This document shows, in pieces, positions 3,787 to 58,322 of a DNA stretch of 64,000 nt. Each line of letters opens with the position of its first letter. The stretch's first letter is position 1. The stretch comes from Escherichia phage EAWsc9. The translations under genes and the position numbers were made by a program. The stretch lies in sequence record PQ341120.1; one strand, 5' to 3'. The notes beneath the pieces were generated by a model, which had not been told where the DNA came from, searched no databases, and saw nothing but the letters and a program-made list of their open reading frames with translations.

Positions 3787-3835
3787 TTTATTCTCCAAAG
3801 TTTTTGTGATTCATTGTGTAACTCAGTATGGAATC

Positions 3836-3864
3836 ATTATGCATCAGGTCAAGGGTCATGTACA
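3836..3864 (-). promoter_or_regulatory. Early promoter cassette (TGTACA-17-CATAAT + conserved leader)
   Basis: Member of repeated family with leader CCATACTGAGTTAC. Confidence 0.45.
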
Positions 3865-3879
3865 CTACTTTTTTAAATA

Positions 3880-3912
3880 TTTTAAAATAAAAAAGGACCC
3901 CGACGGGGTCCT
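3880..3912 (-). terminator. Hairpin + U-run terminator between 52 and downstream promoter
   Basis: AGGACCCC-GAC-GGGGTCCT stem flanked by A/T runs. Confidence 0.5.
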
Positions 3913-4005
3913 AGTTTTTATCTATCTTATTACCAATAAACATACCAACAATCACACCTGCGATTGCCGCGAAAATACAAAGCAATGCAAACTCAACTCC
4001 AAAAC

Positions 4006-5385
4006 TCATAGAGCCTCCAAATCATTAAGGTATTCAGTTTTAACGTCAGTTGTCTTCCAGTACTCATGCTCAGCTTTCTTAGCCTTAGCTTCGTCCGCAA
4101 GCTTCTTAGCTTCATCAGAGGTCATATGGTAGATGTTCATTGCCACTAACTTCTCTGCATAATCGCCATATATTTCACTTGCCTGGAGCTCCTCAATCAA
4201 CTTCTTACGAGGTTTCCCCTGGATAACAACCTTACCATCAATCACTTCTTTAATAAAGAAGACTTTCGCGCGGGCCAGTTTAAATGCCGCTTCAGTTTCT
4301 TTAATCTTACTGTCAATTCGCACTTGGACATAAGTCTTACGAACATCAACGAAATCGCGAATCAGGTCAAGCGTGTTGGTGTATTCAGCCAGTTTACCTT
4401 TGTGATTAAGCACAGTTAAGTTCTGGGAGAGCTTCTCAATCAGACCAAAGTCTTTCATGATTTTCTCATGATTCTCTTCTTCAGTGCCATCCAACTTGTA
4501 TTCTTTGCGGAATTTAATCTTAAACCCAAAACCATGCTCGCCACAGTTATCTTTCCAGGTGATAAAACCTTTCTCTTCCAGTGGGTCCAGGATTTTACTT
4601 GTATATTTTTCCAGGTTCCATTGGACCGGGATTTCAGTAATTTCCATTTGAGTCCGGGAAGTCATTTTGTACGTGCCATGAAGTTCATACTTACCAGGCT
4701 CTTCCAGCTCAACAACTTTACCACGGAATTCTGGATATTTTACTTTCGGAGCAACCGGCTCACGACCTTCCACGATAGCTTTAACAGCTTCCTTGACGTC
4801 CTGGAACGAATGAGGAAGGATATCAGTAGCAAAGCCAACAGCAATCCCAGAAGTGGCGTTAAGTAATACAGTAGGAATAACAGGAAGATAAAAAGCAGGA
4901 GGCTTATGTTCTTCATCAGGATGGACCGGAGCATATTCTGTATCCTTAAACAAGTTGTAAAAGTTCTTTGAAACCCTTGCGAATACATAACGAGCTGATG
5001 ATGCTTCTGGCACCATTCTGGAACCAAAGTTGCCTTGCCCATCAAACATGGGGTATTCATTTTTATATGTTGCGACCAAACCAGAAGTTGCTTCTTCCGC
5101 TGATGCTTCGCCATGGTGATAACCATAATCAGCTACACCCCCTGCGATGGATGCAACCTTATGGAATTTATTTTTATCACCACGTGCCAGGTCTAATGCT
5201 CTCGCCATAACAAATCTGTGAACTGGTTTAAAACCATCAATCATGTTTGGGATGGCACGACCTTCCACAGTGTAGATAGCGTATGACAATGCTTCCACAT
5301 CAATAATGTCTTTTAGACTGCGTGGGTTAAGGGTCCCCATGGAATCACTGAACTGTTTGGACATCATACTTAAAACGTCAGACAT
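4006..5385 (-). CDS. 52: DNA topoisomerase II medium subunit gp52 (GyrA-like)
   Basis: 459 aa; AIPNMIDGFKPVHRFV...GNFGSRMVPEASSARY...YLPVIPTVLLN typical of GyrA/gp52 catalytic region; SD AAGGTGA. Confidence 0.93.
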   Translation of the reverse strand: MSDVLSMMSKQFSDSMGTLNPRSLKDIIDVEALSYAIYTVEGRAIPNMIDGFKPVHRFVMARALDLARGDKNKFHKVASIAGGVADYGYHHGEASAEEATSGLVATYKNEYPMFDGQGNFGSRMVPEASSARYVFARVSKNFYNLFKDTEYAPVHPDEEHKPPAFYLPVIPTVLLNATSGIAVGFATDILPHSFQDVKEAVKAIVEGREPVAPKVKYPEFRGKVVELEEPGKYELHGTYKMTSRTQMEITEIPVQWNLEKYTSKILDPLEEKGFITWKDNCGEHGFGFKIKFRKEYKLDGTEEENHEKIMKDFGLIEKLSQNLTVLNHKGKLAEYTNTLDLIRDFVDVRKTYVQVRIDSKIKETEAAFKLARAKVFFIKEVIDGKVVIQGKPRKKLIEELQASEIYGDYAEKLVAMNIYHMTSDEAKKLADEAKAKKAEHEYWKTTDVKTEYLNDLEAL

Positions 5386-5393
5386 ATATCACC

Positions 5394-5534
5394 TTACCAA
5401 ATTAACGAATGTACTGCCATTATAACATCAGAAATAAAAAGCACAACCTGCACTAATGCAAATACAACTCCATAATACAGCGCTACCAATAAGGCAGCAA
5501 GGGCTAACGAGTAGCCCAAGATTTTCTTAATCAT
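5394..5534 (-). CDS. Small hydrophobic protein (46 aa), ac/stp region
   Basis: MIKKILGYSLALAALLVALYYGVVFALV...; stop directly before SD of gene 52. Confidence 0.4.
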   Translation of the reverse strand: MIKKILGYSLALAALLVALYYGVVFALVQVVLFISDVIMAVHSLIW

Positions 5535-5538
5535 TTTT
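5493..5538. repeat. Repeat A copy 1 (46 nt, contains GGGCTA/TAGCCC hairpin)
   Basis: Identical to 5748..5793. Confidence 0.7.
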
Positions 5539-5679
5539 ATCCAATAATTTAAATAGTGTTAAAGTCGCTAATACACCTTGAGCTGTTGACTGCAGAAATA
5601 CTGAAGTTTCTCCAGTTATTAATGTTCCAACAAATAAAAATGACCAACAGAAAAAAGCTACGCCATGAACAAATTTCAT
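5527..5679 (-). CDS. Small hydrophobic protein (50 aa)
   Basis: MKFVHGVAFFCWSFLFVGTLITG...; SD GAGGAAAAT; ATGA overlap with next ORF. Confidence 0.4.
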   Translation of the reverse strand: MKFVHGVAFFCWSFLFVGTLITGETSVFLQSTAQGVLATLTLFKLLDKND

Positions 5680-5736
5680 ATTTTCCTCAAGGGCGTCCAA
5701 AGACGCCAGTTAATTTCAGATTATGACGATACCATT
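5676..5736. repeat. Repeat B copy 1 (61 nt, GGCGTC/GACGCC hairpin + SD + ATG)
   Basis: 60/61 identity to 5941..6001. Confidence 0.7.
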
Positions 5737-5789
5737 ACAGCGCTACAGGCAGCAAGGGCTAACGAGTAGCCCAAGATTTTCTTAATCAT
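5721..5789 (-). CDS. 22-aa peptide with lipobox-like LAAC (MIKKILGYSLALAACSAVMVSS)
   Basis: Shares first 14 codons with ORF 5394..5534; ATGA overlap with upstream ORF. Confidence 0.2.
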   Translation of the reverse strand: MIKKILGYSLALAACSAVMVSS

Positions 5790-5793
5790 TTTT
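5748..5793. repeat. Repeat A copy 2
   Basis: Identical to 5493..5538. Confidence 0.7.
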
Positions 5794-5944
5794 TCACGTA
5801 CCGTGCCAGACTTACAATTCCAGAAATAACCCATGCAATAAACATCGCGCCCATGAAAAATGTGCTTGGAGTCCAGACTCCCAAAAAGAAGCAGACTGAA
5901 CAAACCACGGCAATAATAAGTTCAATAAAAGCCAGAATAATCAT
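5786..5944 (-). CDS. Small hydrophobic protein (52 aa)
   Basis: MIILAFIELIIAVVCSVCFFLGVW...; SD GAGGAAAAT; replaces track ORF 5721..5903 in another frame. Confidence 0.4.
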   Translation of the reverse strand: MIILAFIELIIAVVCSVCFFLGVWTPSTFFMGAMFIAWVISGIVSLARYVKK

Positions 5945-6001
5945 ATTTTCCTCAAGGGCGTCCAAAGACGCCAGTTAATTTCAGATTATGACGATGCCAT
6001 T
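5941..6001. repeat. Repeat B copy 2
   Basis: 60/61 identity to 5676..5736. Confidence 0.7.
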
Positions 6002-6033
6002 GCATCACGTGTTCATTATGGAAATTACTCATA

Positions 6034-6480
6034 TTAATAGCTCTGCAGAATGAATTTAAAGTTATCAGCAAGCATGCGATTCATTTCTGAAAGGGTCTGG
6101 CAATCAGAACTATGCGAGCGAGTGAACGCCATTGCAATTTGACCTTTACCATAACCAGTTGTCAGAGGTTTCATTTTAGAAACTGGGACAAACAGGACTT
6201 CATAGATAACCCCATTGTTCGCCATTGTGCGAGACAGTTGAGAACGTTGTTTGCGGATGTGACTTAATACAGTGTCAAACCCTTGTTGTGAACGTTGGTT
6301 ACCAACATAAAAACGTGCAGCAACAATACGTGATTCGCCTTCACCTTTAACCACGAAATAAAAACCTGGTTGAGTGATAGCTTCTTTAGTCGGACGCCCG
6401 AGATAATTACCATTATGGATGTAAGCAACAGTGGTAGCGCCAGCATTCAGTACGTCACGACGGGTCATGTAAGTAGACAT
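6034..6480 (-). CDS. ndd: Nucleoid disruption protein Ndd
   Basis: 148 aa; PGFYFVVKG...[14 protein letters not shown]...[11 protein letters not shown]...[12 protein letters not shown] matches my recollection of T4 Ndd; position between 52 and denB. Confidence 0.65.
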
Positions 6481-6524
6481 ATTAATTTCCTCAGTAAGTT
6501 AAAGTTTTGTGCTCCAGTGGGGTC

Positions 6525-6553
6525 ATTATACTCTGACCCCAAGAGTTTGTACA
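6525..6553 (-). promoter_or_regulatory. Early promoter stem-loop cassette upstream of ndd
   Basis: TGTACA-17-TATAAT with GGGGTCA/TGACCCC inverted repeat around the -10; 44-nt block identical to 17730..17773. Confidence 0.5.
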
Positions 6554-6901
6554 CTATTTTTGAAGTTGTTCTAAAATAAATCCGCTCGTATAAAAGGAAG
6601 CATTATACACCTTATTCAGCGGGGTCAAAGCGCGCTTATAGGTATTACGCAATTCTTTGATAACATTTTCATAACTCACGTAGTAAGCACTATGGTAGTA
6701 ACCTGGCTCCATACTCATACGAAATTTAATGAACCGATAAAAGCCTGTTTCCGGGTCTTGGACGAAAACGAAATCAGCACTCGTCATAACTTTTGGATGT
6801 ACGTCAGGAATCATACTTTGATTGAATGCCTCCGACGCCTCCTGAAGGCTAATCTGTTTAAAGAACATAACTTTAGCATTACCAAAAAATACTTTAGACA
6901 T
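6554..6901 (-). CDS. Hypothetical protein (115 aa)
   Basis: ORF with SD-like GGGGAAAA. Confidence 0.55.
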   Translation of the reverse strand: MSKVFFGNAKVMFFKQISLQEASEAFNQSMIPDVHPKVMTSADFVFVQDPETGFYRFIKFRMSMEPGYYHSAYYVSYENVIKELRNTYKRALTPLNKVYNASFYTSGFILEQLQK

Positions 6902-6928
6902 AATATTTTCCCCAGTAAGTAAACCTTT

Positions 6929-7075
6929 TTAAAGAACTTCTTCAATCTGAATGTACTTGCTGTAACCTTCCTCAATGAGGATATCCCGCGCACAATTTGC
7001 GCTAATATACGCATTAAAACTAAGAGTTTTAATCACTTTACCATGAAGCTTTACTTTATAAATTCTATTGTCCAT
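6929..7075 (-). CDS. Hypothetical protein (48 aa)
   Basis: SD GAGGAAAAT before ATG. Confidence 0.35.
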   Translation of the reverse strand: MDNRIYKVKLHGKVIKTLSFNAYISANCARDILIEEGYSKYIQIEEVL

Positions 7076-7090
7076 AATATTTTCCTCAGT

Positions 7091-7336
7091 TTATTCAGGG
7101 TCTACCGCGCCATCCCACAAGTCAACTTCTTCTGATGATTCCATCAGTTCATCAACCGTGAAGCACTCAGTATTATTTTCAATTGCAAAACGCTTCTGAT
7201 AAAAAGGATAATCCAAACAGTTTTCAGTGCGCACAGGGCGCTCGCTGTTATCCATTAAAGGCGAAATGCGAATCAGTTGTTGACCATTACCCAGGACAAA
7301 TTTTTCACCAACTGCAATGTCTTTAAAAAGTTTCAT
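7091..7336 (-). CDS. Hypothetical protein (81 aa)
   Basis: ORF, SD GGAGC. Confidence 0.55.
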   Translation of the reverse strand: MKLFKDIAVGEKFVLGNGQQLIRISPLMDNSERPVRTENCLDYPFYQKRFAIENNTECFTVDELMESSEEVDLWDGAVDPE

Positions 7337-7539
7337 TGCTTAGCTCCATTCCAAATTACATCAACAACAGACTTCAAACCATTATCCTGGATTTGTGTGA
7401 ACACTTCAGCAGCAATCCAGAGCTGGAAACCAATCATTGCAATGGCACCAATGAAAATCAGGATAATCATCGCCACAATAAACTTGAACATAAAGTCAAA
7501 GCGACGATTGGATTTCTGAAATTGTGAATTGTAATTCAT
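7333..7539 (-). CDS. Small membrane protein (68 aa)
   Basis: Internal ATG with SD GAGGA; hydrophobic core. Confidence 0.45.
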   Translation of the reverse strand: MNYNSQFQKSNRRFDFMFKFIVAMIILIFIGAIAMIGFQLWIAAEVFTQIQDNGLKSVVDVIWNGAKQ

Positions 7540-7549
7540 AATATTATCC

Positions 7550-7666
7550 TCAAAAGAAATAGTTAAAGTAAACACGTACATGGTCAATCATAAAAACAAT
7601 TGGGAAAATGCTCAGGACAACAAACAGTACAAACATGTTCCAAATGGCTTTAAGTAACTTTTTCAT
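7550..7666 (-). CDS. Small membrane peptide (38 aa)
   Basis: MKKLLKAIWNMFVLFVVLSIFPIVF...; downstream of promoter cassette. Confidence 0.3.
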   Translation of the reverse strand: MKKLLKAIWNMFVLFVVLSIFPIVFMIDHVRVYFNYFF

Positions 7667-7692
7667 AATCATCTCCAGTAGTTGATAGGTTC

Positions 7693-7720
7693 ATTATACT
7701 ACAACCACTGGAGATGTACA
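7693..7720 (-). promoter_or_regulatory. Early promoter (TGTACA-16-TATAAT)
   Basis: -35/-10 pattern on minus strand followed by conserved leader. Confidence 0.45.
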
Positions 7721-7811
7721 CTCTTTTACGCAAGTTTCATTAATAATAAACTAAAACAAACGCAAATTACTGGGATACACAACATCCAGATAAGACACCA
7801 GGTTTTGCTGC

Positions 7812-8078: not shown

Positions 8079-8088
8079 TCTGTTTTCC

Positions 8089-8244
8089 TCACGCATAACG
8101 ATTGTATGTATTTTTACGACAAGCGTAAAATTGACGCTCAGTAACTGCAAAACTTTTTCCGCGCTGTTGCATTAATTTAAAAAATTCAGTGATATCGCCA
8201 TTAACTTCAAGATATAAAGTCATTGCATATTGAGCAGGTTTCAT
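8089..8244 (-). CDS. Hypothetical protein (51 aa)
   Basis: ATG at 8244 with SD GGAGAATAAA, downstream of promoter cassette. Confidence 0.4.
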   Translation of the reverse strand: MKPAQYAMTLYLEVNGDITEFFKLMQQRGKSFAVTERQFYACRKNTYNRYA

Positions 8245-8283
8245 TTTATTCTCCAGGTTTGTTTGGTAACTCAGTATGGAATC

Positions 8284-8312
8284 ATTATACATAGACTCCA
8301 TACTGATGTACA
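8284..8312 (-). promoter_or_regulatory. Early promoter cassette (TGTACA-17-TATAAT + CCATACTGAGTTACC leader)
   Basis: Repeated family member. Confidence 0.5.
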
Positions 8313-8323
8313 CTACTTTTTAA

Positions 8324-8599: not shown

Positions 8600-8646
8600 G
8601 ATAATGTCCTCATTTGTTGGTGTGAGGACATTATTACATGGTTGGT

Positions 8647-15655: not shown

Positions 15656-16057
15656 TTATTTGAATCGAAGCTGCTCTAACATTTTAATAGCTTGTAGGCG
15701 CCCGGCTTCAGTTTTAACCGTAATAATAACATCGCCACCGGTAACAACGATATCCTCTTTTGATTCCTGTTCGGTTATTTCAGAATCACATTCCTTTGGG
15801 GTTTCTTCAAAATATTTAAATTCATCACCAAAAATAAGACCGGTTCCATTACGACTATGGAAAGAAAATCCAGTTCCATCGATAGTACTAAATTCCGTCA
15901 CAACATTTGCTTCCATCTTGGTGACTGAAAACTCTTTGGTAGTAATCAAATCAATGATAGAGGTTCCTTGCTGGTTCAAAATGCAACCGGGCATACCGAC
16001 ATGTTTAAGGAAGCCATCTAAATCTTTAATGCAATAACTCTTTCCAATTTTAAACAT
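15656..16057 (-). CDS. Hypothetical protein (133 aa)
   Basis: ATG at 16057 with SD GAGGA. Confidence 0.5.
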   Translation of the reverse strand: MFKIGKSYCIKDLDGFLKHVGMPGCILNQQGTSIIDLITTKEFSVTKMEANVVTEFSTIDGTGFSFHSRNGTGLIFGDEFKYFEETPKECDSEITEQESKEDIVVTGGDVIITVKTEAGRLQAIKMLEQLRFK

Positions 16058-16064
16058 AATATCC

Positions 16065-16325
16065 TCATTCAAATCGGATGGTTGAATTCTTGAACAACAA
16101 ACCAGAACAAACAGTTCCTTCAACTTTCTTACCAGTTGGACCCACGGCCGTAAAGCCTGTGTGTTGGAAATCATCTTTACCACAAGAGAACCAATTATAT
16201 CCGGTGATTTGGATTTGCTCATAGCCGTTTGCATCTAATACACGAATGGCGTTATCTGCATCAGTACAACCAGCTAATGAAACCGCCAGCACCAGCGCTG
16301 CAATAGAACGATTAATGTATTTCAT
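16065..16325 (-). CDS. Putative lipoprotein (86 aa)
   Basis: Signal peptide MKYINRSIAALVLAVSLAGC with lipobox LAGC. Confidence 0.55.
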   Translation of the reverse strand: MKYINRSIAALVLAVSLAGCTDADNAIRVLDANGYEQIQITGYNWFSCGKDDFQHTGFTAVGPTGKKVEGTVCSGLLFKNSTIRFE

Positions 16326-17144: not shown

Positions 17145-17699
17145 TTAGGCAAAATGAATATCAGCATACTCAACGATAAAGCTCTCAGGAACAACCTTAA
17201 AGGTTCCAAGGAACACGATATTATACAGTTTGACCCCTTCTTCAACCCACTGGTCTGTGATGTAACCAGACATGCTAGTGGTTTCATAAGTCGGACCATA
17301 CATGCAATTGTATTCAAACGGTTTAGGTGAAACAAAAAAGACACCTTTGCCCAATTTCCATTTAAAATCAACCCCAACATGAGACTGGTCAATGGTTTCA
17401 ACGTCTTGAGCAATTACGCCACGAATATCATTACTTTCGCACACATATCCATCATGGGATTCAACTTCTTCAGACACAGGAGCGATATATCCAGTAAATT
17501 CGGTTGATTCTAGGAATTTAGGATGCACATAAGCCAATTGAGTTTCAGTCTGACCATTTTTAGGAATGATACGCACTTTAACTTCTTTAATTCCACCTAC
17601 TAAATTAGTGCGAAGACCCACAACCTCAACAAAACGACCAGCAGCTTTAGAACGAGATTCTTTAGAAACACGTACAATATCACCAGCTTCAACTTTCAT
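17145..17699 (-). CDS. Hypothetical protein (184 aa), paralog family with 17779..18534
   Basis: C-terminal GYITDQWVEEGVKLYNIVFLGTFKVVPESFIVEY shared with the next gene. Confidence 0.65.
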   Translation of the reverse strand: MKVEAGDIVRVSKESRSKAAGRFVEVVGLRTNLVGGIKEVKVRIIPKNGQTETQLAYVHPKFLESTEFTGYIAPVSEEVESHDGYVCESNDIRGVIAQDVETIDQSHVGVDFKWKLGKGVFFVSPKPFEYNCMYGPTYETTSMSGYITDQWVEEGVKLYNIVFLGTFKVVPESFIVEYADIHFA

Positions 17700-17741
17700 A
17701 ATTTTCTCTCTTGGTTAATAAGTTTATTCTCCAGTGGGGTC

Positions 17742-17770
17742 ATTATACTCTGACCCCAAGAGTTTGTACA
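17742..17770 (-). promoter_or_regulatory. Early promoter stem-loop cassette
   Basis: 44-nt block identical to ndd promoter region. Confidence 0.5.
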
Positions 17771-17778
17771 CTTTAAAT

Positions 17779-18534: not shown

Positions 18535-18791
18535 TATGCAACCTTATTGAACATCGCCAGTTGATTAGGTTGTACAACCATAATTTCACGACGGCCTTTT
18601 GCGTTTGACACGTTCAAGTAGATGCCTTTGTTCATGTCTGTTTCTTTATCATATACCGCAATTTTATTGACAGTAAAGATTTTACCACGAATATTTGTAA
18701 ATGCACATTCAAACGCTTCAGTCAGACCTGCTTCAGCAGCTTGAAGAGCAGACATTTCATATTGTTGGCCAATTTCAAAAGAAGTAATCAT
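18534..18791 (-). CDS. Hypothetical protein (85 aa)
   Basis: ATG at 18791 with SD GAGGA partly inside a leader hairpin. Confidence 0.5.
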   Translation of the reverse strand: MITSFEIGQQYEMSALQAAEAGLTEAFECAFTNIRGKIFTVNKIAVYDKETDMNKGIYLNVSNAKGRREIMVVQPNQLAMFNKVA

Positions 18792-18821
18792 TTTGTTATC
18801 CTCATCAGTAGTTGATGAGAT

Positions 18822-18851
18822 GATTATGTCTCTTTCCATTGGCCTTGTACA
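18822..18851 (-). promoter_or_regulatory. Early promoter (TGTACA-18-CATAAT)
   Basis: -35/-10 pattern, conserved CATCAACTACTG leader. Confidence 0.4.
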
Positions 18852-18858
18852 CTACTTT

Positions 18859-21392: not shown

Positions 21393-22136
21393 TTAACCTC
21401 TAATCAGTTTAAAAATTGACGCGTTCAAAGGCAGACCACGTTTCAGTTTAAGGCGGTCAATGAATGACAACTTATCTAAACGCTCCAGACCTTGAATAAT
21501 TTTATCATACATATCGTAACGCGTTTCAGCGTCAGATGATTTCATTTTCAGACGCCAGTCAGGACCACCCATAACCATTTTCAACCCACGTTGACTAGTT
21601 CCGATGGAAGCCATTTGTCCATGGATACGAGCCTTGACTGCAATCACAGAAGGGGTGGTATCTTTAGCGCCACTTTTATAAAGCTCTTTTAAATGTTTTT
21701 GACGCTTCTTGATTCCACGTTCGGTATCTTTAATATTTTTAACAATTTTGCGAATTTTATAATAGTCAGCGGGAGTTACTTTAAAACTATTGGGCATCTT
21801 AGAACCGCCATTAATACGCACCGCCAAACGAGTCTGTGCACGTTTAAGTTCATCAAGAGATAAATCAGCACGTAAACCGTTGTACTTAGTTTTGACAGGG
21901 ATAACATTGCCTTCAATATAACCTATATCATTGTTAAAGCGTTCAAAGGAAACTTTATCTTGAGTTGAATTTTCATCAAAACGTTCACCAGAATACGCAC
22001 AGAATTCTTGTTTCAAAAGATTGGCGATATACTTACTGGACAGATTGAAATCCTTGTTACGACGTTTTGCAGACGTTTTGGTATGCTCGCGACGTTTGTA
22101 AACTTTTAATTCAAACTCTTCTTTTGACATATTCAT
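21393..22136 (-). CDS. Srd-position protein (247 aa)
   Basis: Basic protein between dda and modA where T4 encodes Srd (~250 aa); identity not verified. Confidence 0.4.
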   Translation of the reverse strand: MNMSKEEFELKVYKRREHTKTSAKRRNKDFNLSSKYIANLLKQEFCAYSGERFDENSTQDKVSFERFNNDIGYIEGNVIPVKTKYNGLRADLSLDELKRAQTRLAVRINGGSKMPNSFKVTPADYYKIRKIVKNIKDTERGIKKRQKHLKELYKSGAKDTTPSVIAVKARIHGQMASIGTSQRGLKMVMGGPDWRLKMKSSDAETRYDMYDKIIQGLERLDKLSFIDRLKLKRGLPLNASIFKLIRG

Positions 22137-22183
22137 GATATTTTTCTCATCTTACGGACGATTTGGTAACTCAGTATGAAATT

Positions 22184-22211
22184 ATTATACACTGTTCATC
22201 TTTCATGTACA
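22184..22211 (-). promoter_or_regulatory. Early promoter cassette (TGTACA-16-TATAAT + CCATACTGAGTTACC leader)
   Basis: Repeated family member. Confidence 0.5.
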
Positions 22212-22271
22212 CTACTTTTTCACCTTTAACGCTTTTATTTTTATTGTGTATAATGGTTCTAAGGTCTTTGG

Positions 22272-28848: not shown

Positions 28849-29142
28849 TTATTCACCTGTAACCCATTGAACAATTTTGCTATTGTCAAATGAAGCATCG
28901 CAATACAGAACATAGTTATACTGCATAACGTCACCAGAAGTCAATTTGTCAGATACTTCTTTAACCATATCAGGGCGGTCACGTTTAGTTATGTTCATAA
29001 TATCAGCATAAATCTGATGTTCAACATCAGTCTGGTCAGCAGTCATAGACCACTCACAAAGGTCTTTATCAAGTCCAGCAGTAACTGGAGCTGTACCACA
29101 TGATGCTACGGTAAGAATTGCTGCAATTAATAACTTTTTCAT
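28849..29142 (-). CDS. sp: Spackle (Sp) periplasmic superinfection-exclusion protein
   Basis: 97 aa; signal peptide then DKDLCEWSMTADQT...DIMNITKRDRP...MQYNYVLYCD matches my recollection of T4 Sp (97 aa). Confidence 0.75.
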   Translation of the reverse strand: MKKLLIAAILTVASCGTAPVTAGLDKDLCEWSMTADQTDVEHQIYADIMNITKRDRPDMVKEVSDKLTSGDVMQYNYVLYCDASFDNSKIVQWVTGE

Positions 29143-29180
29143 TTCAATCTCCTCAGTAGTTGATAGGGATAATATACTGC

Positions 29181-29209
29181 ATTATCCCTTTGATGTACAC
29201 TTATTTTTC
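29181..29209 (-). promoter_or_regulatory. Early promoter (TGTACA-17-GATAAT) upstream of sp
   Basis: Followed by CTATCAACTACTGAGGAG leader. Confidence 0.4.
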
Positions 29210-29755: not shown

Positions 29756-30073
29756 TTAGATTTCCTCACAGAAGGCCCATTCGGCGTGATAAACTGTTGC
29801 GCCTTTAGTATCATTTAAACAAACCACGTCAACAGGTGCAATCACACGATAAAGACGGGGTTCTCCTCCATATGAGCGAGCTGCTCTTCCTGCATAGATA
29901 CGGGCCAAACCAATATCTTCAGTAAAAAACACACGCCCTAAATTTTTCTTGCGCCCAACTTCTGACAGAACACCAGTTGCATCAGGAGGGCAAAGCATAT
30001 TTTGGATTCCAGCATTAGAGCTTGAGCCATGATAATAAACTTTGTATTCCGCCTTGCAATCAATAGTTTTCAT
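29756..30073 (-). CDS. Hypothetical protein (105 aa) with YHGSS motif
   Basis: Own promoter and leader; first gene after the 41 terminator; not recognised as a T4 gene. Confidence 0.55.
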   Translation of the reverse strand: MKTIDCKAEYKVYYHGSSSNAGIQNMLCPPDATGVLSEVGRKKNLGRVFFTEDIGLARIYAGRAARSYGGEPRLYRVIAPVDVVCLNDTKGATVYHAEWAFCEEI

Positions 30074-30092
30074 TTTATTCTCCAGTAGTTGA

Positions 30093-30120
30093 TAGGGTCA
30101 TTATAACATAAGAAAAAGGG
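30093..30120 (-). promoter_or_regulatory. Early promoter (-10 TATAAT) with -35 inside terminator loop
   Basis: TATAAT followed by CCCTATCAACTACTGGAGAA leader. Confidence 0.4.
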
Positions 30121-30130
30121 GCTGTAAGCC
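30105..30130. terminator. Hairpin terminator after gene 41 (AGGGGC-loop-GCCCCT, A/T runs both sides)
   Basis: 6-bp GC stem flanked by AAAAA and TTTT. Confidence 0.55.
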
Positions 30131-30144
30131 CCTTTTAAAATATT

Positions 30145-33680: not shown

Positions 33681-33824
33681 TCAATTAAAACATTCATAGC
33701 GGGCTTGGAGCCCCAAAAATACCCAACCCAAAATTAAAGTTGGAATCATATGCGGAGTCATTATTGCCCAATAGATTGACATACTAAAAAATGCAATCAG
33801 TACAATAATTGTAATTATCTTCAT
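33681..33824 (-). CDS. Small membrane protein (47 aa)
   Basis: MKIITIIVLIAFFSMSIYWAIM...; ATGA overlap with upstream gene. Confidence 0.35.
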   Translation of the reverse strand: MKIITIIVLIAFFSMSIYWAIMTPHMIPTLILGWVFLGLQARYECFN

Positions 33825-34063
33825 TTGGTTTCCTTGATGATAATTACATGTGCATTTGATTTACGCTCAGCAACGAGTGCCCAGATAAATGCAATAAACC
33901 ATCCGACCATTGTCCAACCTAACAGGAGGTTAACAAAGAAGATTCCGCAATTACTTTTGGTTCCTCGCAGTAGCGCGATAATCCACGGCAGAAAATATGC
34001 CAGTGCAGCCAGGAAGAAAGAACCAGCACCAAGAACAACAGTACCTGCAATTAATGTTTCCAT
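33821..34063 (-). CDS. Two-TM membrane protein (80 aa), Imm-position
   Basis: Two hydrophobic helices; immediately downstream of gene 43 where T4 has imm. Confidence 0.45.
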   Translation of the reverse strand: METLIAGTVVLGAGSFFLAALAYFLPWIIALLRGTKSNCGIFFVNLLLGWTMVGWFIAFIWALVAERKSNAHVIIIKETK

Positions 34064-34132
34064 TTTAATATCCTTAAGTTATTCATCAGTTGATGGAGTA
34101 ATCATACGGCAATCCTTTGCCGTTGTAAACAC

Positions 34133-47547: not shown

Positions 47548-47720
47548 AATTTAATTTCCTTAGCTACTGAACAAAATACACCACGGTCACAAATCATTTT
47601 AATATTAAGGTCAATTATGGTATACCACACATCCAGACTAGATATTTCAGTTACTAGAACAGCTTTGCCGTTGATTGAATAATACTGGTTGACTTTAATT
47701 TCTTTATCTTGGATAGTCAT
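47544..47720 (-). CDS. Hypothetical protein (58 aa)
   Basis: SD GAGGAAAA; ATGA overlap with downstream gene. Confidence 0.4.
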   Translation of the reverse strand: MTIQDKEIKVNQYYSINGKAVLVTEISSLDVWYTIIDLNIKMICDRGVFCSVAKEIKL

Positions 47721-47786
47721 TATGTTTTCCTCATCATTAGTTGATGGGATAATGATACACCGTTCAAAGGGGCTTGTACACCCCTT

Positions 47787-48104
47787 TTAATCTTCAATTA
47801 AGTCCTGGTCATACCCCAGGGATATCAGTTTTGTTTTAAAGGCAGGAATATTGGTCATTTTTTCATCATTGACAAAAATCACCGGGTAACGAATGTTAAG
47901 GGTAGGATATCCAGCACGCTTAGCCAGAGACACGATTAAAGGCCTGTCATAAGCGATTTCAGAGCCTTGTTTGTTAAGGACTGAATAGAATGTATAAGGA
48001 AGGTTTAAGGAGCCCAGAAGGCTCCTGACGTGCATACAACCAGGGCATCGACCGACTTCTTCGGGGATACCATAGATTTCAATCTTAGTCGAGTTTTGGC
48101 CCAC
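47787..48104 (-). CDS. nrdH: Glutaredoxin-like redoxin (NrdH position)
   Basis: 105 aa; CPGC redox motif in thioredoxin-fold context; upstream of nrdG/nrdD. Confidence 0.6.
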   Translation of the reverse strand: MGQNSTKIEIYGIPEEVGRCPGCMHVRSLLGSLNLPYTFYSVLNKQGSEIAYDRPLIVSLAKRAGYPTLNIRYPVIFVNDEKMTNIPAFKTKLISLGYDQDLIED

Positions 48105-48384: not shown

Positions 48385-48596
48385 TCTTTCACCTTCATCA
48401 TTTTAGTAATAACACTATGGACAGCCTGGATTCGTTTGTCGAACTCAGACCCTTCGAGGCCCTTTTCAGTACTCAGGGCACCAATCATCACAAACAGCAA
48501 TCCAAATGGGATAACCAGGATTAAAAGGCACACAATAAACAGGACAAATGTAATATTGGCCAGGATATCAGAAACAGCATTACGAAATTTATTCAT
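48381..48596 (-). CDS. Small membrane protein (71 aa)
   Basis: ATG at 48596 with SD AAGGGTAA; hydrophobic core. Confidence 0.45.
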   Translation of the reverse strand: MNKFRNAVSDILANITFVLFIVCLLILVIPFGLLFVMIGALSTEKGLEGSEFDKRIQAVHSVITKMMKVKE

Positions 48597-48710
48597 ATTT
48601 ACCCTTAATTGATTAACCAAGCATTGATAAGCACTAAACTATACTGCGAATAAAATTCTGGACCAAAATGAAAAATCATATCATTTATAGTATCCATAAT
48701 ATAATTAAAT

Positions 48711-49181
48711 TTAATCATGTTTCCACACCCCATCGGTATTTGACCAAAGTCGCTGATTATCTGACCCTCGCCACAGTTTTTTGGTCGGAAGATTTTTCTC
48801 ATACTTCCCATCAATAATAACATCAACATATTTAAGCATTTCTAGTTGTTTAATATCTTCAAACTTATATCCTGTCCACATCCAAATGCTTTTATTTGGA
48901 TAAAGATTTTTAACAGTTTGAACCACAGAGTGAATAACATCTCGGTTATCAGGATAGAGAGGGTCTCCTCCAGTTATAGTTAATCCTTCTATATAATCAT
49001 TATTCAAACATTCAATTAATTGTTCTAGTGTTTCACCAGTGAATGGAACCCCATTTCTAGCATTCCATGTTGATTTATTATAACACCCTTCGCATTTATG
49101 CAAACAACCTGTGACGAAAAGAACGACCCTGCATCCAGGGCCATTAATAAAATCACAAGGATAAATTCTATCATAATTCAT
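48711..49181 (-). CDS. nrdG: Anaerobic ribonucleotide reductase activating protein NrdG (radical SAM)
   Basis: 156 aa; CxxxCxxC-type cluster region GCLHKCEGCYN. Confidence 0.9.
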   Translation of the reverse strand: MNYDRIYPCDFINGPGCRVVLFVTGCLHKCEGCYNKSTWNARNGVPFTGETLEQLIECLNNDYIEGLTITGGDPLYPDNRDVIHSVVQTVKNLYPNKSIWMWTGYKFEDIKQLEMLKYVDVIIDGKYEKNLPTKKLWRGSDNQRLWSNTDGVWKHD

Positions 49182-50995
49182 TGGTGTTTAACCCTATGCA
49201 TGATTTCTTTATTTTTGCCGAGATTAAATCCGCGCTCGTTCGGATTTCCCAAATAACCACAAGTTCTTCTTATTGTGTTCATCTTTTTAGGGTCAGTTTC
49301 TCCACAAATAGAACAAACAAATCCGTTTTCAGTAGGAGTCATTTCATGGGTACTTCCACACGTAAAACATTTATCTACTGGCATGTTAACACCAAAATAA
49401 TCTAAATGTTGCGCAGCATAATCCCATACAGCCTCAAGACCTTTTAAGTTATTTTTCATATCAGGAAGTTCAACATAAGAAATGTGACCACCTGTCGCAA
49501 TGAAATGATATGGAGCTTCGCGGGAAATCTTTTCAAACGGGGTGATATTTTCTTCTACTGAAACATGGAAACTATTAGTGTACCAGCCTTTATCAGTAAC
49601 ATCCTTTACACTTCCATATTTTTCAGTATCAAGTTTACAGAAGCGATAACAAAGGTTTTCAGCAGGTGTAGAATACAAGCTAAAAGCAAAACCGGTTCTT
49701 TCAGTCCACTGCTTAAGACGAGCATTCATTTTAGTCAAAATTTCCTGTCCAATATCACGACCGACAAGAATATTCAATTCGTGAATACCAATGTATCCCA
49801 AAGACACTGAACTTCTACCGTTTTTAAATAACTCAATTATATCATCATCAGGTTTAAGACGAACCCCGAATGCACCTTCTTGGTAAAGAATAGGAGCAAC
49901 AGTCGCTTTAACTCCTTTTAAGGAATTAATTCTACACATCAAAGCTTCAAAACACAAATCCATTCGCTCATTGAACAATTCGATAAATTTCTGTTCATTG
50001 AACTGTGTTCCAATATAAGAATCTAACGCAATGCGAGGAAGATTCAGTGTTACAACGCCAAGATTATTACGTCCATCAAGAATTTCATTGCCAGTCGAAT
50101 CTTTCCATAAGCTCAAGAAACTACGGCAACCCATTGGAGAAACAGGAATAGATGAACCAGTGATAGCTTTATTATTCTTAACTGAAATAATATCAGGATA
50201 CATCCTTTTGCTTGCACACTCTAGAGCAAGCTGCTTAATATCATAGTTCGGGTCGTCTTTATAAAGATTAACACCTTCTTCAACGAACATAACAAGTTTA
50301 GGGAAAATAGGAGTTATCCCATCACGGCCAAGACCTTTGATACGATTTTTCAGAATTGCTTTCTGAATCATTCGTTCAGTCCAGTCAGTTCCCGTACCAA
50401 ATGTAATGGTTACAAAAGGCGTTTGTCCGTTTGAACTAAAGAGAGTATTTACTTCATATTCATAAGCTTGGAATGCATCGTATACGTCTTTTTCTGTTTT
50501 AGATTGGGCGTAATTCAATGCATCAGTGATTTGCCATTTTTCTGCATCTTCAATATGTTTTGCGTATGTACGTTTAACATAAGGAGAAAATACTTTGTCT
50601 ACATTAGCAAAAGTCGTTCCACCATATTGGTGAGAAGCAACCTGTGCAGTAATTTGTGCCATAATTGCAGTAGCAACACCAATTGATTTAGGAGTTTCAA
50701 TCTGTGCGTTACCAAGCTTAAATCCGTTCTCAAGCATTCCTTTTAAATCTACTAAACAGCAATTAGTAAATGGAAGAGCAGGGGAATAATCAATATCATG
50801 GAAATGAATAATTCCACTTTCATGTGCTTTCATAATAAAAGACGCAACCATATTTTTGGCAATGTGTTTAGATACAATACCAGCCATAAGGTCCCGTTGA
50901 GTTGGAAAAACACGAGAATCTTTATTAGCATTCTCGTTTAAAAGGTCTTTATTAGTTTTATGAATCAATCCTTCAATTTCGTTTTCAATTGTCAT
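49178..50995 (-). CDS. nrdD: Anaerobic ribonucleoside-triphosphate reductase NrdD
   Basis: 605 aa continuous ORF; C-terminal Zn ribbon CxxC...CxxC and glycyl-radical region TCGYLG; no intron interruption. Confidence 0.95.
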   Translation of the reverse strand: MTIENEIEGLIHKTNKDLLNENANKDSRVFPTQRDLMAGIVSKHIAKNMVASFIMKAHESGIIHFHDIDYSPALPFTNCCLVDLKGMLENGFKLGNAQIETPKSIGVATAIMAQITAQVASHQYGGTTFANVDKVFSPYVKRTYAKHIEDAEKWQITDALNYAQSKTEKDVYDAFQAYEYEVNTLFSSNGQTPFVTITFGTGTDWTERMIQKAILKNRIKGLGRDGITPIFPKLVMFVEEGVNLYKDDPNYDIKQLALECASKRMYPDIISVKNNKAITGSSIPVSPMGCRSFLSLWKDSTGNEILDGRNNLGVVTLNLPRIALDSYIGTQFNEQKFIELFNERMDLCFEALMCRINSLKGVKATVAPILYQEGAFGVRLKPDDDIIELFKNGRSSVSLGYIGIHELNILVGRDIGQEILTKMNARLKQWTERTGFAFSLYSTPAENLCYRFCKLDTEKYGSVKDVTDKGWYTNSFHVSVEENITPFEKISREAPYHFIATGGHISYVELPDMKNNLKGLEAVWDYAAQHLDYFGVNMPVDKCFTCGSTHEMTPTENGFVCSICGETDPKKMNTIRRTCGYLGNPNERGFNLGKNKEIMHRVKHQ

Positions 50996-51465
50996 TTTAA
51001 ACTCTTTCTAAGCTGCTTCTTAAATGAAGCCATTAATTGTGTTTTGGTGTCAGATTCATTATAAGTCATACCATTCAAAAGCATTTCCCGAATCATTTCT
51101 TCTTTCCCCAGACGACCGAACTCTTTGGCTTTGTCTGTTACAAAATTGGGGTGAATATTGTTTTCGGTATAATCAGATTTCAGATAGACAAGCAAACTCT
51201 CTAACCATTCCAGGTAGTCAACATCGCGACTTTTCAGACCCGAACGGCTGAACTTATGCTTCATTTGTCCTTCTGTCCCATTGCACAGATTGCATAGTAA
51301 CCCGCGAACCTTACCAGCTTTTGGCCCGTTCAATTCGTGGTCATGGTCAAGATGGTTGGCCTGAACATCGGAGTCCAAATCACGGTGGCAAATTGGACAC
51401 TTACCAGCTTGTGCATCATAAAGTTTTTGTTTTTCTTCTTTGTATAATTTGCCAGTCAACAACAT
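50992..51465 (-). CDS. 49: Endonuclease VII gp49 (Holliday junction resolvase)
   Basis: 157 aa; MLLTGKLYKEEKQK...CPICHR...HLDHDHELNGPKAGKVRGLLCNLCN near-identical pattern to T4 gp49. Confidence 0.93.
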   Translation of the reverse strand: MLLTGKLYKEEKQKLYDAQAGKCPICHRDLDSDVQANHLDHDHELNGPKAGKVRGLLCNLCNGTEGQMKHKFSRSGLKSRDVDYLEWLESLLVYLKSDYTENNIHPNFVTDKAKEFGRLGKEEMIREMLLNGMTYNESDTKTQLMASFKKQLRKSLK

Positions 51466-55035: not shown

Positions 55036-55093
55036 AGTGTTCTCCTCATAAAGTAGGAATTCATTATACTCCCTCCATCCTTGGAAGTAAACA

Positions 55094-55969: not shown

Positions 55970-55970
55970 A

Positions 55971-56186: not shown

Positions 56187-56187
56187 A

Positions 56188-57033: not shown

Positions 57034-57096
57034 AATAATTTCCTCAATAGATTAATCAAAGGTCAGAACCATTATACCATCCTTGGTATAAAGCGT

Positions 57097-57621
57097 TTAT
57101 GCGAGAACCGTCTTTAAACGCTCTTCAAACTTCTGAAGGAGTACCTGGCGCTCTGCTCTTTGTTTGGTATAGGTTTCAATACGCTCTGAAGTGAGATTGT
57201 ATTGTTCATTAACTGATTCCCTCATGAATTCAGGAATCTCTTTACATGCTTTGATTTCATTGAACTTATCAAGCACCGCTTGTTGTTCAGCAATCAGACC
57301 ATCATAATATTGGATATCTGATTTGATGTTTTGTACATCAGATTCAGTAGGCATATTTTTCTTCGCTCTTGTCGCCTGATACTCTGCATTAGTCTCTCTT
57401 GACCAGAACAAAGAGCGATTTTTGTTGGTGTTTTTATACACATCAACAATACCTACTGAATCAACAGTCACAATCCAGTTCCAGGCGTTTTTATAAGTTT
57501 GACCACCTGATACTGTAATCTCACCCGCACAAGCAACATCATTAAAGAACTTGCTTTGTGCTTCTGATTTAAAATTACCATTATTGTAATTAATCAGATT
57601 AAAGATTGATTTGGCTTCCAT
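57097..57621 (-). CDS. Hypothetical protein (174 aa) with C-terminal coiled coil
   Basis: ATG at 57621 after promoter cassette leader. Confidence 0.5.
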   Translation of the reverse strand: MEAKSIFNLINYNNGNFKSEAQSKFFNDVACAGEITVSGGQTYKNAWNWIVTVDSVGIVDVYKNTNKNRSLFWSRETNAEYQATRAKKNMPTESDVQNIKSDIQYYDGLIAEQQAVLDKFNEIKACKEIPEFMRESVNEQYNLTSERIETYTKQRAERQVLLQKFEERLKTVLA

Positions 57622-57657
57622 TTTATTCTCCAGTATTTGGTAACTCAGTATGGGAAC

Positions 57658-57686
57658 ATTATACGCCCATCCCCATACCATGTACA
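57658..57686 (-). promoter_or_regulatory. Early promoter cassette (TGTACA-17-TATAAT + CCATACTGAGTTACC leader)
   Basis: Repeated family member. Confidence 0.5.
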
Positions 57687-57689
57687 CAT

Positions 57690-57992
57690 TTAATTAAAAG
57701 TTCTTTCAGTATTTTCACCACTGAACCAGACGCTCTTAACGGCTTGCTGGGCGCGATGTAGCTGCTCTGCCATATAAACACCAAGGGCCTCAGCCTTACG
57801 TGTCCTGTGGGCTTCTGCGGCGACTATTTGCAACTTATCCATCATGATAAGAGCTTTACATTTCTCCTTCAGAGCATATCGCTTCTTCTCTTCTGGAGTT
57901 TTGACCATTCCTCTTAACTTGTGCATTTTCAACTTAAAATGGTCAGCAGATTTCAGACATGCCTCAATCATGTCAAGTTCATACTTTTTCAT
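57690..57992 (-). CDS. Hypothetical basic helical protein (100 aa)
   Basis: SD GAGGA. Confidence 0.5.
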   Translation of the reverse strand: MKKYELDMIEACLKSADHFKLKMHKLRGMVKTPEEKKRYALKEKCKALIMMDKLQIVAAEAHRTRKAEALGVYMAEQLHRAQQAVKSVWFSGENTERTFN

Positions 57993-57998
57993 AATTCC

Positions 57999-58205
57999 TC
58001 ACTTGCGACGACGTTTTGGTAATGGTTTAGGGAAGAACATTGCTTTACCTGCAGGGGTCAAAGTCACACGCAAAGCATTACCAATACCAAGGGATGCTTT
58101 AACCAGACCTTTGGCTTTTAACTCACCAAATGCTTGACGTTGTTCAGGGTCACGAGTGTTAACCATCAGACCTTTTTCACCAGCAGCTTTGATTAATTCT
58201 AACAT
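57999..58205 (-). CDS. Hypothetical basic protein (68 aa)
   Basis: SD GGAGAATAAA. Confidence 0.5.
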   Translation of the reverse strand: MLELIKAAGEKGLMVNTRDPEQRQAFGELKAKGLVKASLGIGNALRVTLTPAGKAMFFPKPLPKRRRK

Positions 58206-58246
58206 TTTATTCTCCGTTTGTTTATTTGGTAACTCAGTATGAAATC

Positions 58247-58275
58247 ATTATGCATCATGACCATCTGGTTGTACA
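58247..58275 (-). promoter_or_regulatory. Early promoter cassette (TGTACA-17-CATAAT + CCATACTGAGTTACC leader)
   Basis: Repeated family member; abuts start of plus-strand gene. Confidence 0.5.
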
Positions 58276-58322
58276 CATATACTAAATAAAAATACTTAAT
58301 AAAACCATAAAGGAGAAAGTTT

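Follow-up and report, generated by a model that had tools for sequence, protein, structure and literature searches.

Putative early promoter cassettes with a conserved transcribed leader and a RegB/S1-type ribosome-binding site in the T4-type Escherichia phage EAWsc9

The stretch of DNA considered here, 64,000 nucleotides of Escherichia phage EAWsc9 (sequence record PQ341120.1; in the following "the window"), carries a family of repeated intergenic blocks which precede small genes of the early-transcribed strand. Over its first 20 kb, the window matches Gaprivervirus, a genus of T4-type coliphages (VR5/VR7/VR20/SP18/RZ group), the best match of this part being phage MN01 with 96.5% identity. 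According to names transferred from VR20, VR26 and VR7, the gene order runs from t/asiA, motA, 52, ndd, denB, rIIB, rIIA and 39 via motB, dexA, dda, srd, modA/B, 41, uvsX, 43 and 45 to 46/47, 55, nrdD/G, 49 and nrdC and on towards tk, with the names near the first repeated block taken from the annotation of RZ and VR20. The minus strand is the early-transcribed strand and holds nearly all genes of the window.

An initial annotation had proposed at least five near-identical loci of about 30 nt, which was confirmed by a motif search. The degenerate 29-nt block TTTGGTAACTCAGTATGRAAYMATTATRC (up to 3 mismatches) has five matches, all on the plus strand as written (3814-3842, 8262-8290, 22162-22190, 57636-57664 and 58225-58253), and none in 100 dinucleotide-preserving shuffles. 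Likewise, the core 13-mer CATACTGAGTTAC occurs exactly five times on the minus strand, its sole near-match (2 mismatches) being the complementary hairpin arm in the spacer of copy 2. The five copies, termed A-type, and the terminator belonging to the first of them comprise the following elements:

3784..3865 (minus strand), copy 1: -35 TGTACA at 3859-3864, 17-nt spacer, -10 CATAAT at 3836-3841, discriminator and leader GATTCC-ATACTGAGTTACACAA at 3814-3835, ribosome-binding site (RBS) GGAGAATAAAA at 3786-3796, ATG at 3784-3786; followed by an open reading frame (ORF) of 71 amino acids (aa) and then motA.
3894..3912, just upstream of the copy-1 A-tract: bidirectional intrinsic-terminator hairpin AGGACCCCGTCGGGGTCCT with a T-run, the stem-loop of the copy-1 cassette.
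8242..8313 (minus strand), copy 2: -35 at 8307-8312, -10 TATAAT at 8284-8289, leader block at 8262-8283, hairpin arms TCAGTATGGAGTC (8294-8306) and GATTCCATACTGA (8271-8283) enclosing the -10, GGAGAATAAAA at 8244-8254, ATG at 8242-8244; 51-aa ORF at 8089-8244, which VR20 and VR7 lack.
22134..22212 (minus strand), copy 3: -35 at 22206-22211, 16-nt spacer, -10 TATAAT at 22184-22189, AATTTC-ATACTGAGTTACCAAA at 22162-22183, no RegB-type site, ATG at 22134-22136 of the srd homologue.
57619..57687 (minus strand), copy 4: -35 at 57681-57686, -10 TATAAT at 57658-57663, GTTCCC-ATACTGAGTTACCAAA at 57636-57657, hairpin GGTATGGG.../...CCCATACT enclosing the -10, GGAGAATAAAA at 57621-57631, ATG at 57619-57621 of the NrdC.8 homologue.
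58203..58276 (minus strand), copy 5: -35 at 58270-58275, -10 CATAAT at 58247-58252, GATTTC-ATACTGAGTTACCAAA at 58225-58246, GGAGAATAAAA at 58205-58215, ATG at 58203-58205 of a 68-aa ORF; the NrdC.9 homologue comes next.

On the minus strand, each copy consists of an A-rich tract, (G)TGTACA, a spacer, T/CATAAT, GAYYCC, ATACTGAGTTAC(C/A)(A/C)AA, a variable linker, an RBS and an ATG. TGTACA is found upstream in all five copies; the distance of 17 nt that had been ascribed to it holds for copies 1, 2, 4 and 5, whereas copy 3 alone among the five has 16 nt (22211). The A-tract is of the AAAAAGTAG type at copies 1-3, copies 4 and 5 feature AT-rich tracts, and at copy 5 the A-tract of VR20/VR7 is replaced by inserted DNA. 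All copies are intergenic, point in the direction of the early genes, lie 15-50 nt upstream of the RBS and ATG, and end in a Shine-Dalgarno (SD) sequence plus start codon (5/5). The distance between copies 4 and 5 is 589 nt. Most of the genes downstream are without a Pfam family, and Pfam gave no function common to them. The intergenic position, the co-orientation with early genes, the A-tract and the C-rich positions -3 to -1 support the earlier reading of the loci as minus-strand -35/-10 promoters with a conserved leader, and in a generic promoter scan the cassettes are the top-scoring sigma70-like sites of their regions as judged by sequence match. The five blocks probably represent the core of an "A-type" sub-family of early promoter cassettes for the host RNA polymerase (sigma70) in a Gaprivervirus T4-type phage. 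At copy 1, a second promoter-like site, TTGACC-N16-CATACT (3825-3852, minus strand), overlaps the first one; its -10 coincides with the leader start (C-ATACT) and has the key -10 positions A2 and T6, and its TTGACC also occurs in the orthologues of copy 1 and in two other cassettes of VR20.

These five copies belong to a larger promoter family. A profile derived from VR20 promoters found ~15 confident sites in the window, with 29 of 30 matches on the minus strand, and repeat analysis together with a promoter census revealed a shared promoter followed by one of three discrete downstream blocks. Class A is CC-ATACTGAGTTACCAAA (the five copies), class B is CC-ATCAACTACTG(AT)GAGG/GGAG (7720, 18851, 29199, 30132, 34129, 47780 and 62579), and class C is GACCCC-ACTGGAG (6553 and 17770); the classes are not connected by intermediate forms. 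In the complete genome of VR20, the early strand holds every cassette, namely 13 of class A, ~12 of class B and 2 of class C, and 12/12 of the genomic ATACTGAGTTA 11-mers directly follow a -10 on that strand. Four of the A cassettes of VR20 are neighbours at 66.8-68.3 kb.

Among paralogues, the spacer is only 33-38% identical, which is near random, as compared to 87-100% for the -35, ~90% for the -10 and 88-96% for the leader (+1 to +16). Between VR20 and the Morganella phage MP1 (genus Gualtarvirus), whose record annotates the same elements as promoters found by MEME, the corresponding values are 30% (spacer), 90% (-35), 86% (-10) and 90% (leader). Because the leader is conserved like the polymerase-contact hexamers across genera whose spacers are unrelated, the comparison argues for selection on the leader in its own right and not merely for recent duplication or gene conversion. 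A-type copies are found in Gaprivervirus, Gualtarvirus (including one copy in a Providencia phage of this genus), Dhakavirus and Tequatrovirus. The single copies of Dhakavirus IME341 and Tequatrovirus ESH35 (at ~400-490 of the matched loci) share the spacer type and precede the same DUF5417 (frd.1-like) gene, which suggests that this promoter-plus-gene module has moved horizontally. A scan of viral contigs with the 16-mer gave 50 loci, of which the real ones belong solely to VR20, VR25, VR26, MP1 and IME341; the others are chance matches in coding DNA with no promoter upstream. The combination of -10, leader and RBS has no match in 5,426 Escherichia coli genomes, which rules out a host mimic or prophage element, and Rfam gave no match at gathering score over the whole window. 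In the searchable literature, the leader is not described (the motif string matched unrelated primers only), nothing specific was found on promoters of VR7, JS98 or Gaprivervirus, and no transcriptome was found for this genus. A nicotinamide adenine dinucleotide (NAD)-capping promoter context, an IHF site, a MotA box and anti-SD complementarity were dropped by eye owing to a poor fit to the respective consensus.

A further module of the cassettes, overlooked by the initial annotation, is the RBS. The optimal target of T4 RegB/S1 is the single-stranded 11-mer GGAGAAUAAAA (degenerate GGAGRAYARAA; Durand et al., 2006, PMC1702504), and the RBS block GGAGAATAAAA corresponds exactly to this published optimum. 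Four of the five A-type copies end in GGAGAATAAAATG, and the window contains exactly five matches to the optimum, compared to 0.16 expected. All of them are located in cassettes, namely at 3786, 8244, 57621 and 58205 behind A leaders and at 30073 behind the B-type promoter 30132; all five overlap the SD and start codon, and they are unpaired in those predicted folds that include them. VR20 has 12 such matches genome-wide; 11 abut an ATG on the early strand, and 7 follow A leaders, which amounts to perfect sites in 7/13 A-type versus 1/12 B-type cassettes. The resemblance to the RegB/S1 sites of T4 early mRNAs hence covers the exact 11-nt match, the position on the SD of early genes, the predicted single-strandedness and the presence of regB in close relatives (in VR20 it is annotated ~2 kb past the region homologous to the end of the window). 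In a departure from this pattern, the srd copy, alone among the five A-type copies, has no such site. By analogy with T4, a phage-encoded RegB would cut within GG^AG. The coupling of a RegB site to one leader class is previously undescribed.

Further early-type promoters of the window are as follows:

6480..6554 (minus strand): C-type cassette before ndd, TGTACA-17-TATAAT; TGGGGTCA/TGACCCCA enclose the -10.
17699..17771 (minus strand): C-type cassette before motB, core same as 6525-6554.
1136..1165 (minus strand): early-type promoter upstream of asiA, TGTACA-17-TATAAT; leader belonging to none of the types A, B and C.
7666..7721 (minus strand): B-type cassette, TGTACA-16-TATAAT, leader ATCAACTACTGGAG; hairpin with spacer arm CTCCAGTGGTTG pairing with CAACTACTGGAG, the 3' arm containing the GGAG SD.
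18791..18852 (minus strand): B-type cassette, TGTACA-17-CATAAT, leader ATCAACTACTGATGAGG.
29142..29200 (minus strand): B-type cassette, TGTACA-17-TATATT; AGGGATAA/TTATCCCT enclose the -10.
30071..30137 (minus strand): B-type cassette, -35 CTTACA in the loop of the terminator-like hairpin AAAAGGGGC..GCCCCTTTTT, -10 TATAAT, GGAGAATAAAA at 30073-30083.
34063..34130 (minus strand): B-type cassette, TTTACA-17-TATGAT, spacer hairpin CGGCAA-AGGA-TTGCCG; just upstream of the imm-homologue ORF (33821-34063), which follows the DNA polymerase gene.
47720..47795 (minus strand): B-type cassette, TGTACA-17-TATCAT, hairpin AAAGGGG-TGTACAAG-CCCCTTT over the -35.
62496..62587 (minus strand): B-type cassette, GTTTACA ... 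TACTAT, leader ATCAACTACTGAGGAG; weaker match to the profile.

Of the seven further TGTACA-17-TATAAT promoters listed before, three fit exactly (1136, 6525 and 17742) and four deviate slightly (spacer of 16 at 7693, CATAAT at 18823, TATATT at 29171, -35 CTTACA at 30095); the sites at 34129, 47780 and 62579 had been missed. The two C-type promoters (6525-6554 and 17742-17771) lie 11 kb apart and are identical over 30 nt including the spacer, with 96% identity over 50 nt. As this pair is identical in VR20, too, the identity points to strong constraint or ongoing conversion. A 66-nt query across one of the B-type cassettes (18805-18870) was found with 100% identity in 28/33 matching Gaprivervirus records. 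Additionally, B-type leaders of the form AUCAACUACUGAUGAGG (47720-47751 and 18791-18822, minus strand) could form a small hairpin at the 5' end (CAUCA/UGAUG) just before or overlapping the SD, which is impossible for those with a CUGGAG end.

Several cassettes carry an inverted repeat (IR) around the -10. Copy 2 folds into a 13-pair hairpin with the -10 in its loop (-21.6 kcal/mol, z = -3.6), and copy 4 into a similar -10-enclosing hairpin of ~9-13 pairs with G.U. The flanking repeats CAGTATGG/CCATACTG, formerly regarded as a feature of the cassettes in general, are present at copies 2 and 4 only; the IR of copy 3 spans 6 bp, copies 1 and 5 have none, and folding of copies 3 and 5 gave nothing above shuffles. 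Among the 39 promoters of the window and VR20, 15 show a perfect IR of at least 7 bp enclosing the -10 when spacer arms are compared to the discriminator/leader, versus 0.8 with shuffled spacers (maximum 4 in 500 shuffles). The hairpin arms covary with the leader type, and because they differ among types A, B and C yet stay complementary, pairing and not a protein site is maintained. A protein operator was rejected for this reason and in view of the strand-specific G.U mismatches: in 31 stems from the window and relatives, non-Watson-Crick positions comprise 23 G.U and 1 A.C, both being penalised equally. Such a bias is suggestive, although not decisive, of a structure in the sense strand, e.g., in RNA reading through from upstream.

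The position of the hairpins differs between the classes. In A-type cassettes, the 3' arm covers -6 to +7 and the SD follows unpaired 10-35 nt further on, while B-type hairpins are located over the -35 (47780; 30132, terminator-like), in the spacer (34129) or around the -10. The -10-enclosing hairpins feature no U-tract and are therefore not intrinsic terminators. In the T4 genes e, soc, 49 and I-TevI, a promoter lies inside a hairpin, so that the RBS is masked in read-through RNA and open in RNA from the own promoter. The cassettes resemble this arrangement in that the start separates an upstream 5' arm from a downstream 3' arm, with only read-through RNA predicted to fold, and the sense-strand G.U bias fits RNA. 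They deviate from it by the A-type 3' arm, which consists of the leader and not the SD, and by the promoters being early instead of late or middle. An RBS-sequestering 3' arm was not found in A-type cassettes, but in the B-type cassette 7666-7721, whose 3' arm holds the GGAG SD, the match being one of sequence.

The proposal that such cassettes mediate modular shuffling is upheld by comparison with VR20, VR26, VR7 and VR25, which shows exchanges switching in or just after the leader. Block maps of the window against relatives comprise 35 insertion/deletion (indel) loci. At copy 2, VR20 and VR7 share the upstream gene, promoter and leader and continue directly with the MDIKLYY gene; in the window and RZ the leader is followed first by the 51-aa ORF (8089-8244), in VR26 by one unrelated to it. 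The variable slot thus extends from the leader end to the next RBS and holds three different first genes across the phages. In VR26, the promoter of the copy-5 gene (MLELIK) joins a spacer, -10 and discriminator of the copy-4 type to a linker of the copy-5 type, and therefore the switch is placed within the leader. Moreover, VR20 and VR25 have the order P(a)-leader-MFNA gene-P(b)-leader-MKTS gene and VR26 has P(a)-leader-MKTS gene; the two orders differ by a deletion or insertion whose junction lies in the leader. At the srd promoter, the VR20 spacer is unrelated to that of the window. VR20, VR26 and VR7 carry ~424 nt extra (terminator, A-type promoter and ORF) directly upstream of the B-type cassette 30132, and homology to VR7 and VR26 breaks at 29203-29209, beside the B-type cassette 29142..29200. 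Homology to VR20/VR7 stops exactly at the -35 of copy 5 (58276), where the window has 1011 extra nt. Altogether, four clear cases have their switch points inside a cassette, and several breakpoints are located at cassette edges.

The 1011-nt module next to copy 5 (58277-59287) lies amid the early-gene region; it is missing from VR20 and present in eight other Gaprivervirus genomes. In VR20/VR7, copy 5 is preceded by a terminator and an A-tract, whose place the module takes in the window; it has its own terminator (59076-59093). Its plus-strand ORF of 248 aa (58323-59069) contains a collagen-like repeat and an Sf6-type tail-needle-knob domain (Pfam Phage_tail_NK, 2.6e-32).

Regarding known systems, the cassettes come closest to the promoter-early stem-loops (PeSLs), as suggested at the outset. 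A PeSL combines a sigma70-like promoter with an AT-rich tract, SD plus ATG and a stem-loop that may take any of five positions; PeSLs lie between genes in front of ORFans, are associated with indels, and were described in RB49/phi1, T4/PST and KVP40/nt-1 (Arbiol et al., 2010, PMC2839356; Comeau et al., 2014, PMC4122927). The likeness includes the AT-rich tract, the -35/N17/-10 promoter, SD and ATG at the 3' end, the location before small early or unknown genes, the variable position of the stem-loop (upstream, over the -35, in the spacer or enclosing the -10), the occurrence of many copies per genome in one orientation, and the use as crossover points for insertion, deletion or exchange of modules among close relatives. 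The assignment stands with regard to the sequence features and, qualitatively, to recombination, whereas the stem-loop is seen in three of the five copies. In contrast to the described PeSLs, the phage of the window belongs to Gaprivervirus and hence lies outside the groups in which they were found; the -35 is TGTACA instead of TTGACA (RB49) or TTTACW (T4); the 16-nt initially transcribed leader and the RegB-type RBS, which were not singled out in PMC2839356 and PMC4122927, are most conserved; a -10-enclosing hairpin is found in only ~40% of promoters and lacks a U-tract; indel edges are not enriched over other gene junctions; and the cassettes are known from sequence, whereas PeSLs are also characterised by demonstrated promoter and terminator activity and by mini-circles.

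Likewise, T4-type early promoters feature a G at -36, a GTTTAC-like -35, an A-rich stretch at -40 to -44, a -10 TAnAAT (A-11, T-7) and C-rich positions -3 to -1 (Nolan et al., 2006, PMC1524935). These elements are shared by the cassettes, as is the placement on the early strand 5' of motA, srd, asiA, ndd, motB, dexA and novel ORFs, but G replaces T at -34 (GTGTAC) and conservation reaches +16 in discrete leader classes. Conserved "downstream regions" (+1 to +20) are also a property of strong early promoters of phage T5. With these and with sigma70 pause elements the cassettes have in common a shared initially transcribed sequence and the -10-like CATACT at -1 to +5, but no sequence similarity.

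A functional cassette would, according to the preferred interpretation as a sigma70 early promoter unit, often begin with an intrinsic terminator or other stem-loop, followed by an A-rich UP-like tract, (G)TGTACA, a spacer of 16-17 nt, T/CATAAT, a C-rich discriminator, a start at the A of CC-ATACTGAGTTACCAAA and a short A/C-rich linker. In 4/5 copies, GGAGAATAAAA-TG would then act as SD, start codon and optimal RegB/S1 target at once. Such a cassette may fire right after infection and give a strong mRNA pulse for small early genes, i.e., the motA operon, srd, the NrdC.8/.9 homologues and ORFans, whereupon RegB produced from early transcripts would cut inside the SD and silence those messages, as the T4 precedent suggests. 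The leader most likely acts as initially transcribed or 5'-terminal mRNA sequence, which is the preferred guess. In a subset of cassettes it would at the same time provide the 3' arm of a sense-strand hairpin with the 5' arm between -35 and -10; because cassette-started transcripts lack the 5' arm, this -10-enclosing hairpin would form solely in transcripts reading through from upstream. Besides, the 30-nt block from -10 to leader and the RBS block, being direct repeats with ~13 copies per genome, may serve as homology patches where recombination deletes, inserts or swaps the modules between them, as judged from relatives. This use in recombination would be a by-product of the leader function.

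A more specific extension of this model is tentative and rather unlikely in its entirety: the transcript start (C)ATACTGAGTTA might be a dedicated cis-element, i.e., an initial-transcribed or sigma70 pause module or a site for an early factor, which together with the RegB/S1 site would define a "pulse-expressed" immediate-early regulon in at least two T4-type genera, with the hairpin hiding the element in read-through RNA. If true, the same gene would be handled differently depending on the promoter of origin, and the principle of T4 e/soc/49 would be extended to early genes.

Several points weigh against the promoter-cassette interpretation or parts of it. Promoter activity, start site and RegB cleavage are all inferred, and regB itself lies outside the window. 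TGTACA fits TTGACA at just 4/6 positions, and the generic scanner gave no overall surplus of promoter-like sites in this AT-rich DNA. The 100% identity at +1 to +10 is partly circular, as this 10-mer was the search anchor; independent of the anchor are the lack of intermediate leader forms and the conservation at -6 to -1 and +11 to +16. Orthologous cassette cores are 95.8% identical and the flanking coding DNA 93.6%, a 2-point gap which is not informative. A convincing stem-loop is present in just 3/5 copies of the window (copy 1 as upstream terminator, copies 2 and 4). Among the 23 G.U positions, some involve conserved promoter bases (GT before the -10, AT at its end) and many were counted in orthologues, which are not independent events. 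Finally, the cassettes had been said to mark the boundaries of accessory gene blocks, in which they do not stand out: indel edges occur at 3/12 cassette junctions (4/16 by hand) versus 37/130 other junctions (Fisher p = 1). This comparison used three comparators, a crude gene map drawn from ORFs, including some spurious ones on the plus strand, and two cassettes added by hand. The cassettes are, as far as the alignments indicate, used as crossover sites but are not special markers of block boundaries, and plasticity in the small-gene regions of these phages extends to most junctions.

The alternatives mainly concern the leader. It is possible, though not likely, that the leader has no function of its own and that the copies are remnants of a duplicated promoter-plus-leader module, homogenised by gene conversion between paralogues (concerted evolution), with the hairpins as by-products of template switching. 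The chimeric cassettes, which show conversion or recombination between copies, the discrete leader classes without intermediates, and the two C-type promoters identical over 30 nt at 11 kb distance would all fit this explanation. Still, conversion should homogenise the spacers as well, and these are ~33-38% identical among paralogues; the same leader occurs in another genus with different hosts and unrelated spacers, and both the 23:1 ratio of G.U over A.C and the 18-fold IR excess argue for selection on the hairpin. Slightly less probable is that +1 to +16 represents a protein site by which a phage early/middle regulator or modified RNA polymerase controls a promoter regulon, or, as a variant, that C-ATACT induces a sigma70-dependent promoter-proximal pause, for which the lambdoid PR' is a precedent of sigma-dependent pausing. 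Conservation equal to that of the polymerase-contact hexamers across genera speaks for it, as do the A2 and T6 of CATACT, which was scanned as a -10 with upstream TTGACC at copy 1, and the preference of perfect RegB sites for A-type cassettes (7/13 vs 1/12 B-type), which suggests a distinct regulatory class. The leader is, however, without dyad symmetry, no candidate binding protein was identified, and B- and C-type promoters lack the hexamer.

The block might also owe its conservation to structure, serving above all as 3' arm of a hairpin with a regulatory or terminator role (the stem-loop of a PeSL). This is improbable, although copies 2 and 4 as well as MP1 have strong hairpins, whose stems reach up to 12 perfect pairs (GGTAACTCAGTA/TACTGAGTTACC), and although there is one compensatory difference (...GGA/TCC... 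in copy 2, ...GGG/CCC... in copy 4). About half of the A-type copies carry the identical leader without a complementary 5' arm, structure alone would let the leader drift with the spacer, and the missing U-tract after the 3' arm excludes an intrinsic terminator. By far the least credible is an origin as ends or targets of a mobile element (a homing-endonuclease site or a repeat like a miniature inverted-repeat transposable element, MITE). The blocks are repeated and adjoin variable DNA, and relatives encode homing endonucleases in a few of the neighbouring genes. Yet every copy runs in the direction of the genes and fits exactly between a terminator or stop codon on one side and an RBS on the other; endonuclease genes do not consistently adjoin the blocks, which also lack terminal inverted repeats and target-site duplications, and the leader is missing from the 5,426 E. 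coli genomes, with only chance matches in coding DNA outside T4-type phages. This reading was rejected for these reasons.

Cassettes of the PeSL type are among the few mechanisms proposed for the shuffling of small accessory genes in T4-type phages without broken regulation, and the observations extend the phenomenon to the Gaprivervirus and Gualtarvirus lineages. The crossovers are unusually clean, as the chimeric promoter, the deletion between adjacent cassettes and the three-way variable slot are each placed within ~16-30 nt. The portable unit carries its own putative shut-off signal in the form of a perfect RegB/S1 site, and its first 11-16 transcribed bases are as constrained as the hexamers contacted by the polymerase. 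On the other hand, the lack of indel-edge enrichment tempers the claim that such cassettes drive plasticity. New aspects are the genus-wide and cross-genus picture, the leader classes, RegB/S1 as third module, the strand-specific hairpin covarying with type, the crossovers mapped to the leader and the negative enrichment result.

Apart from the cassettes, the window differs from its relatives in further small-gene regions. The 192-aa ORF between gene 39 and 39.1 (15656-16234, minus strand), possibly a mobile nuclease gene, is missing from VR20 and has no Pfam match at E <= 0.01; in RZ, VR7 and VR26 its equivalent is labelled "endonuclease VII". A tandem duplication of ~255-265 nt within 5492-6004, between gene 52 and ndd, includes two small hairpins and is single-copy in VR20 (5492-5538 equals 5747-5793 at 100%, and 5676-5739 matches 5941-6004 at 97%). 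In the ndd.1/ndd.3 region (6899-7552), two adjacent small-gene blocks have swapped their order relative to VR20. The srd homologue cannot be aligned to VR20, VR26 and VR7 at 21543-21842 (~300-600 nt past its start), with flanks of 89-95% identity, and its N-terminus differs as well (MNMS vs MTLS). Finally, the nrdG/nrdD segment (anaerobic ribonucleotide reductase; 48596-51005, ~2.4 kb) is shared by the window and VR20 and absent from VR26 and VR7.

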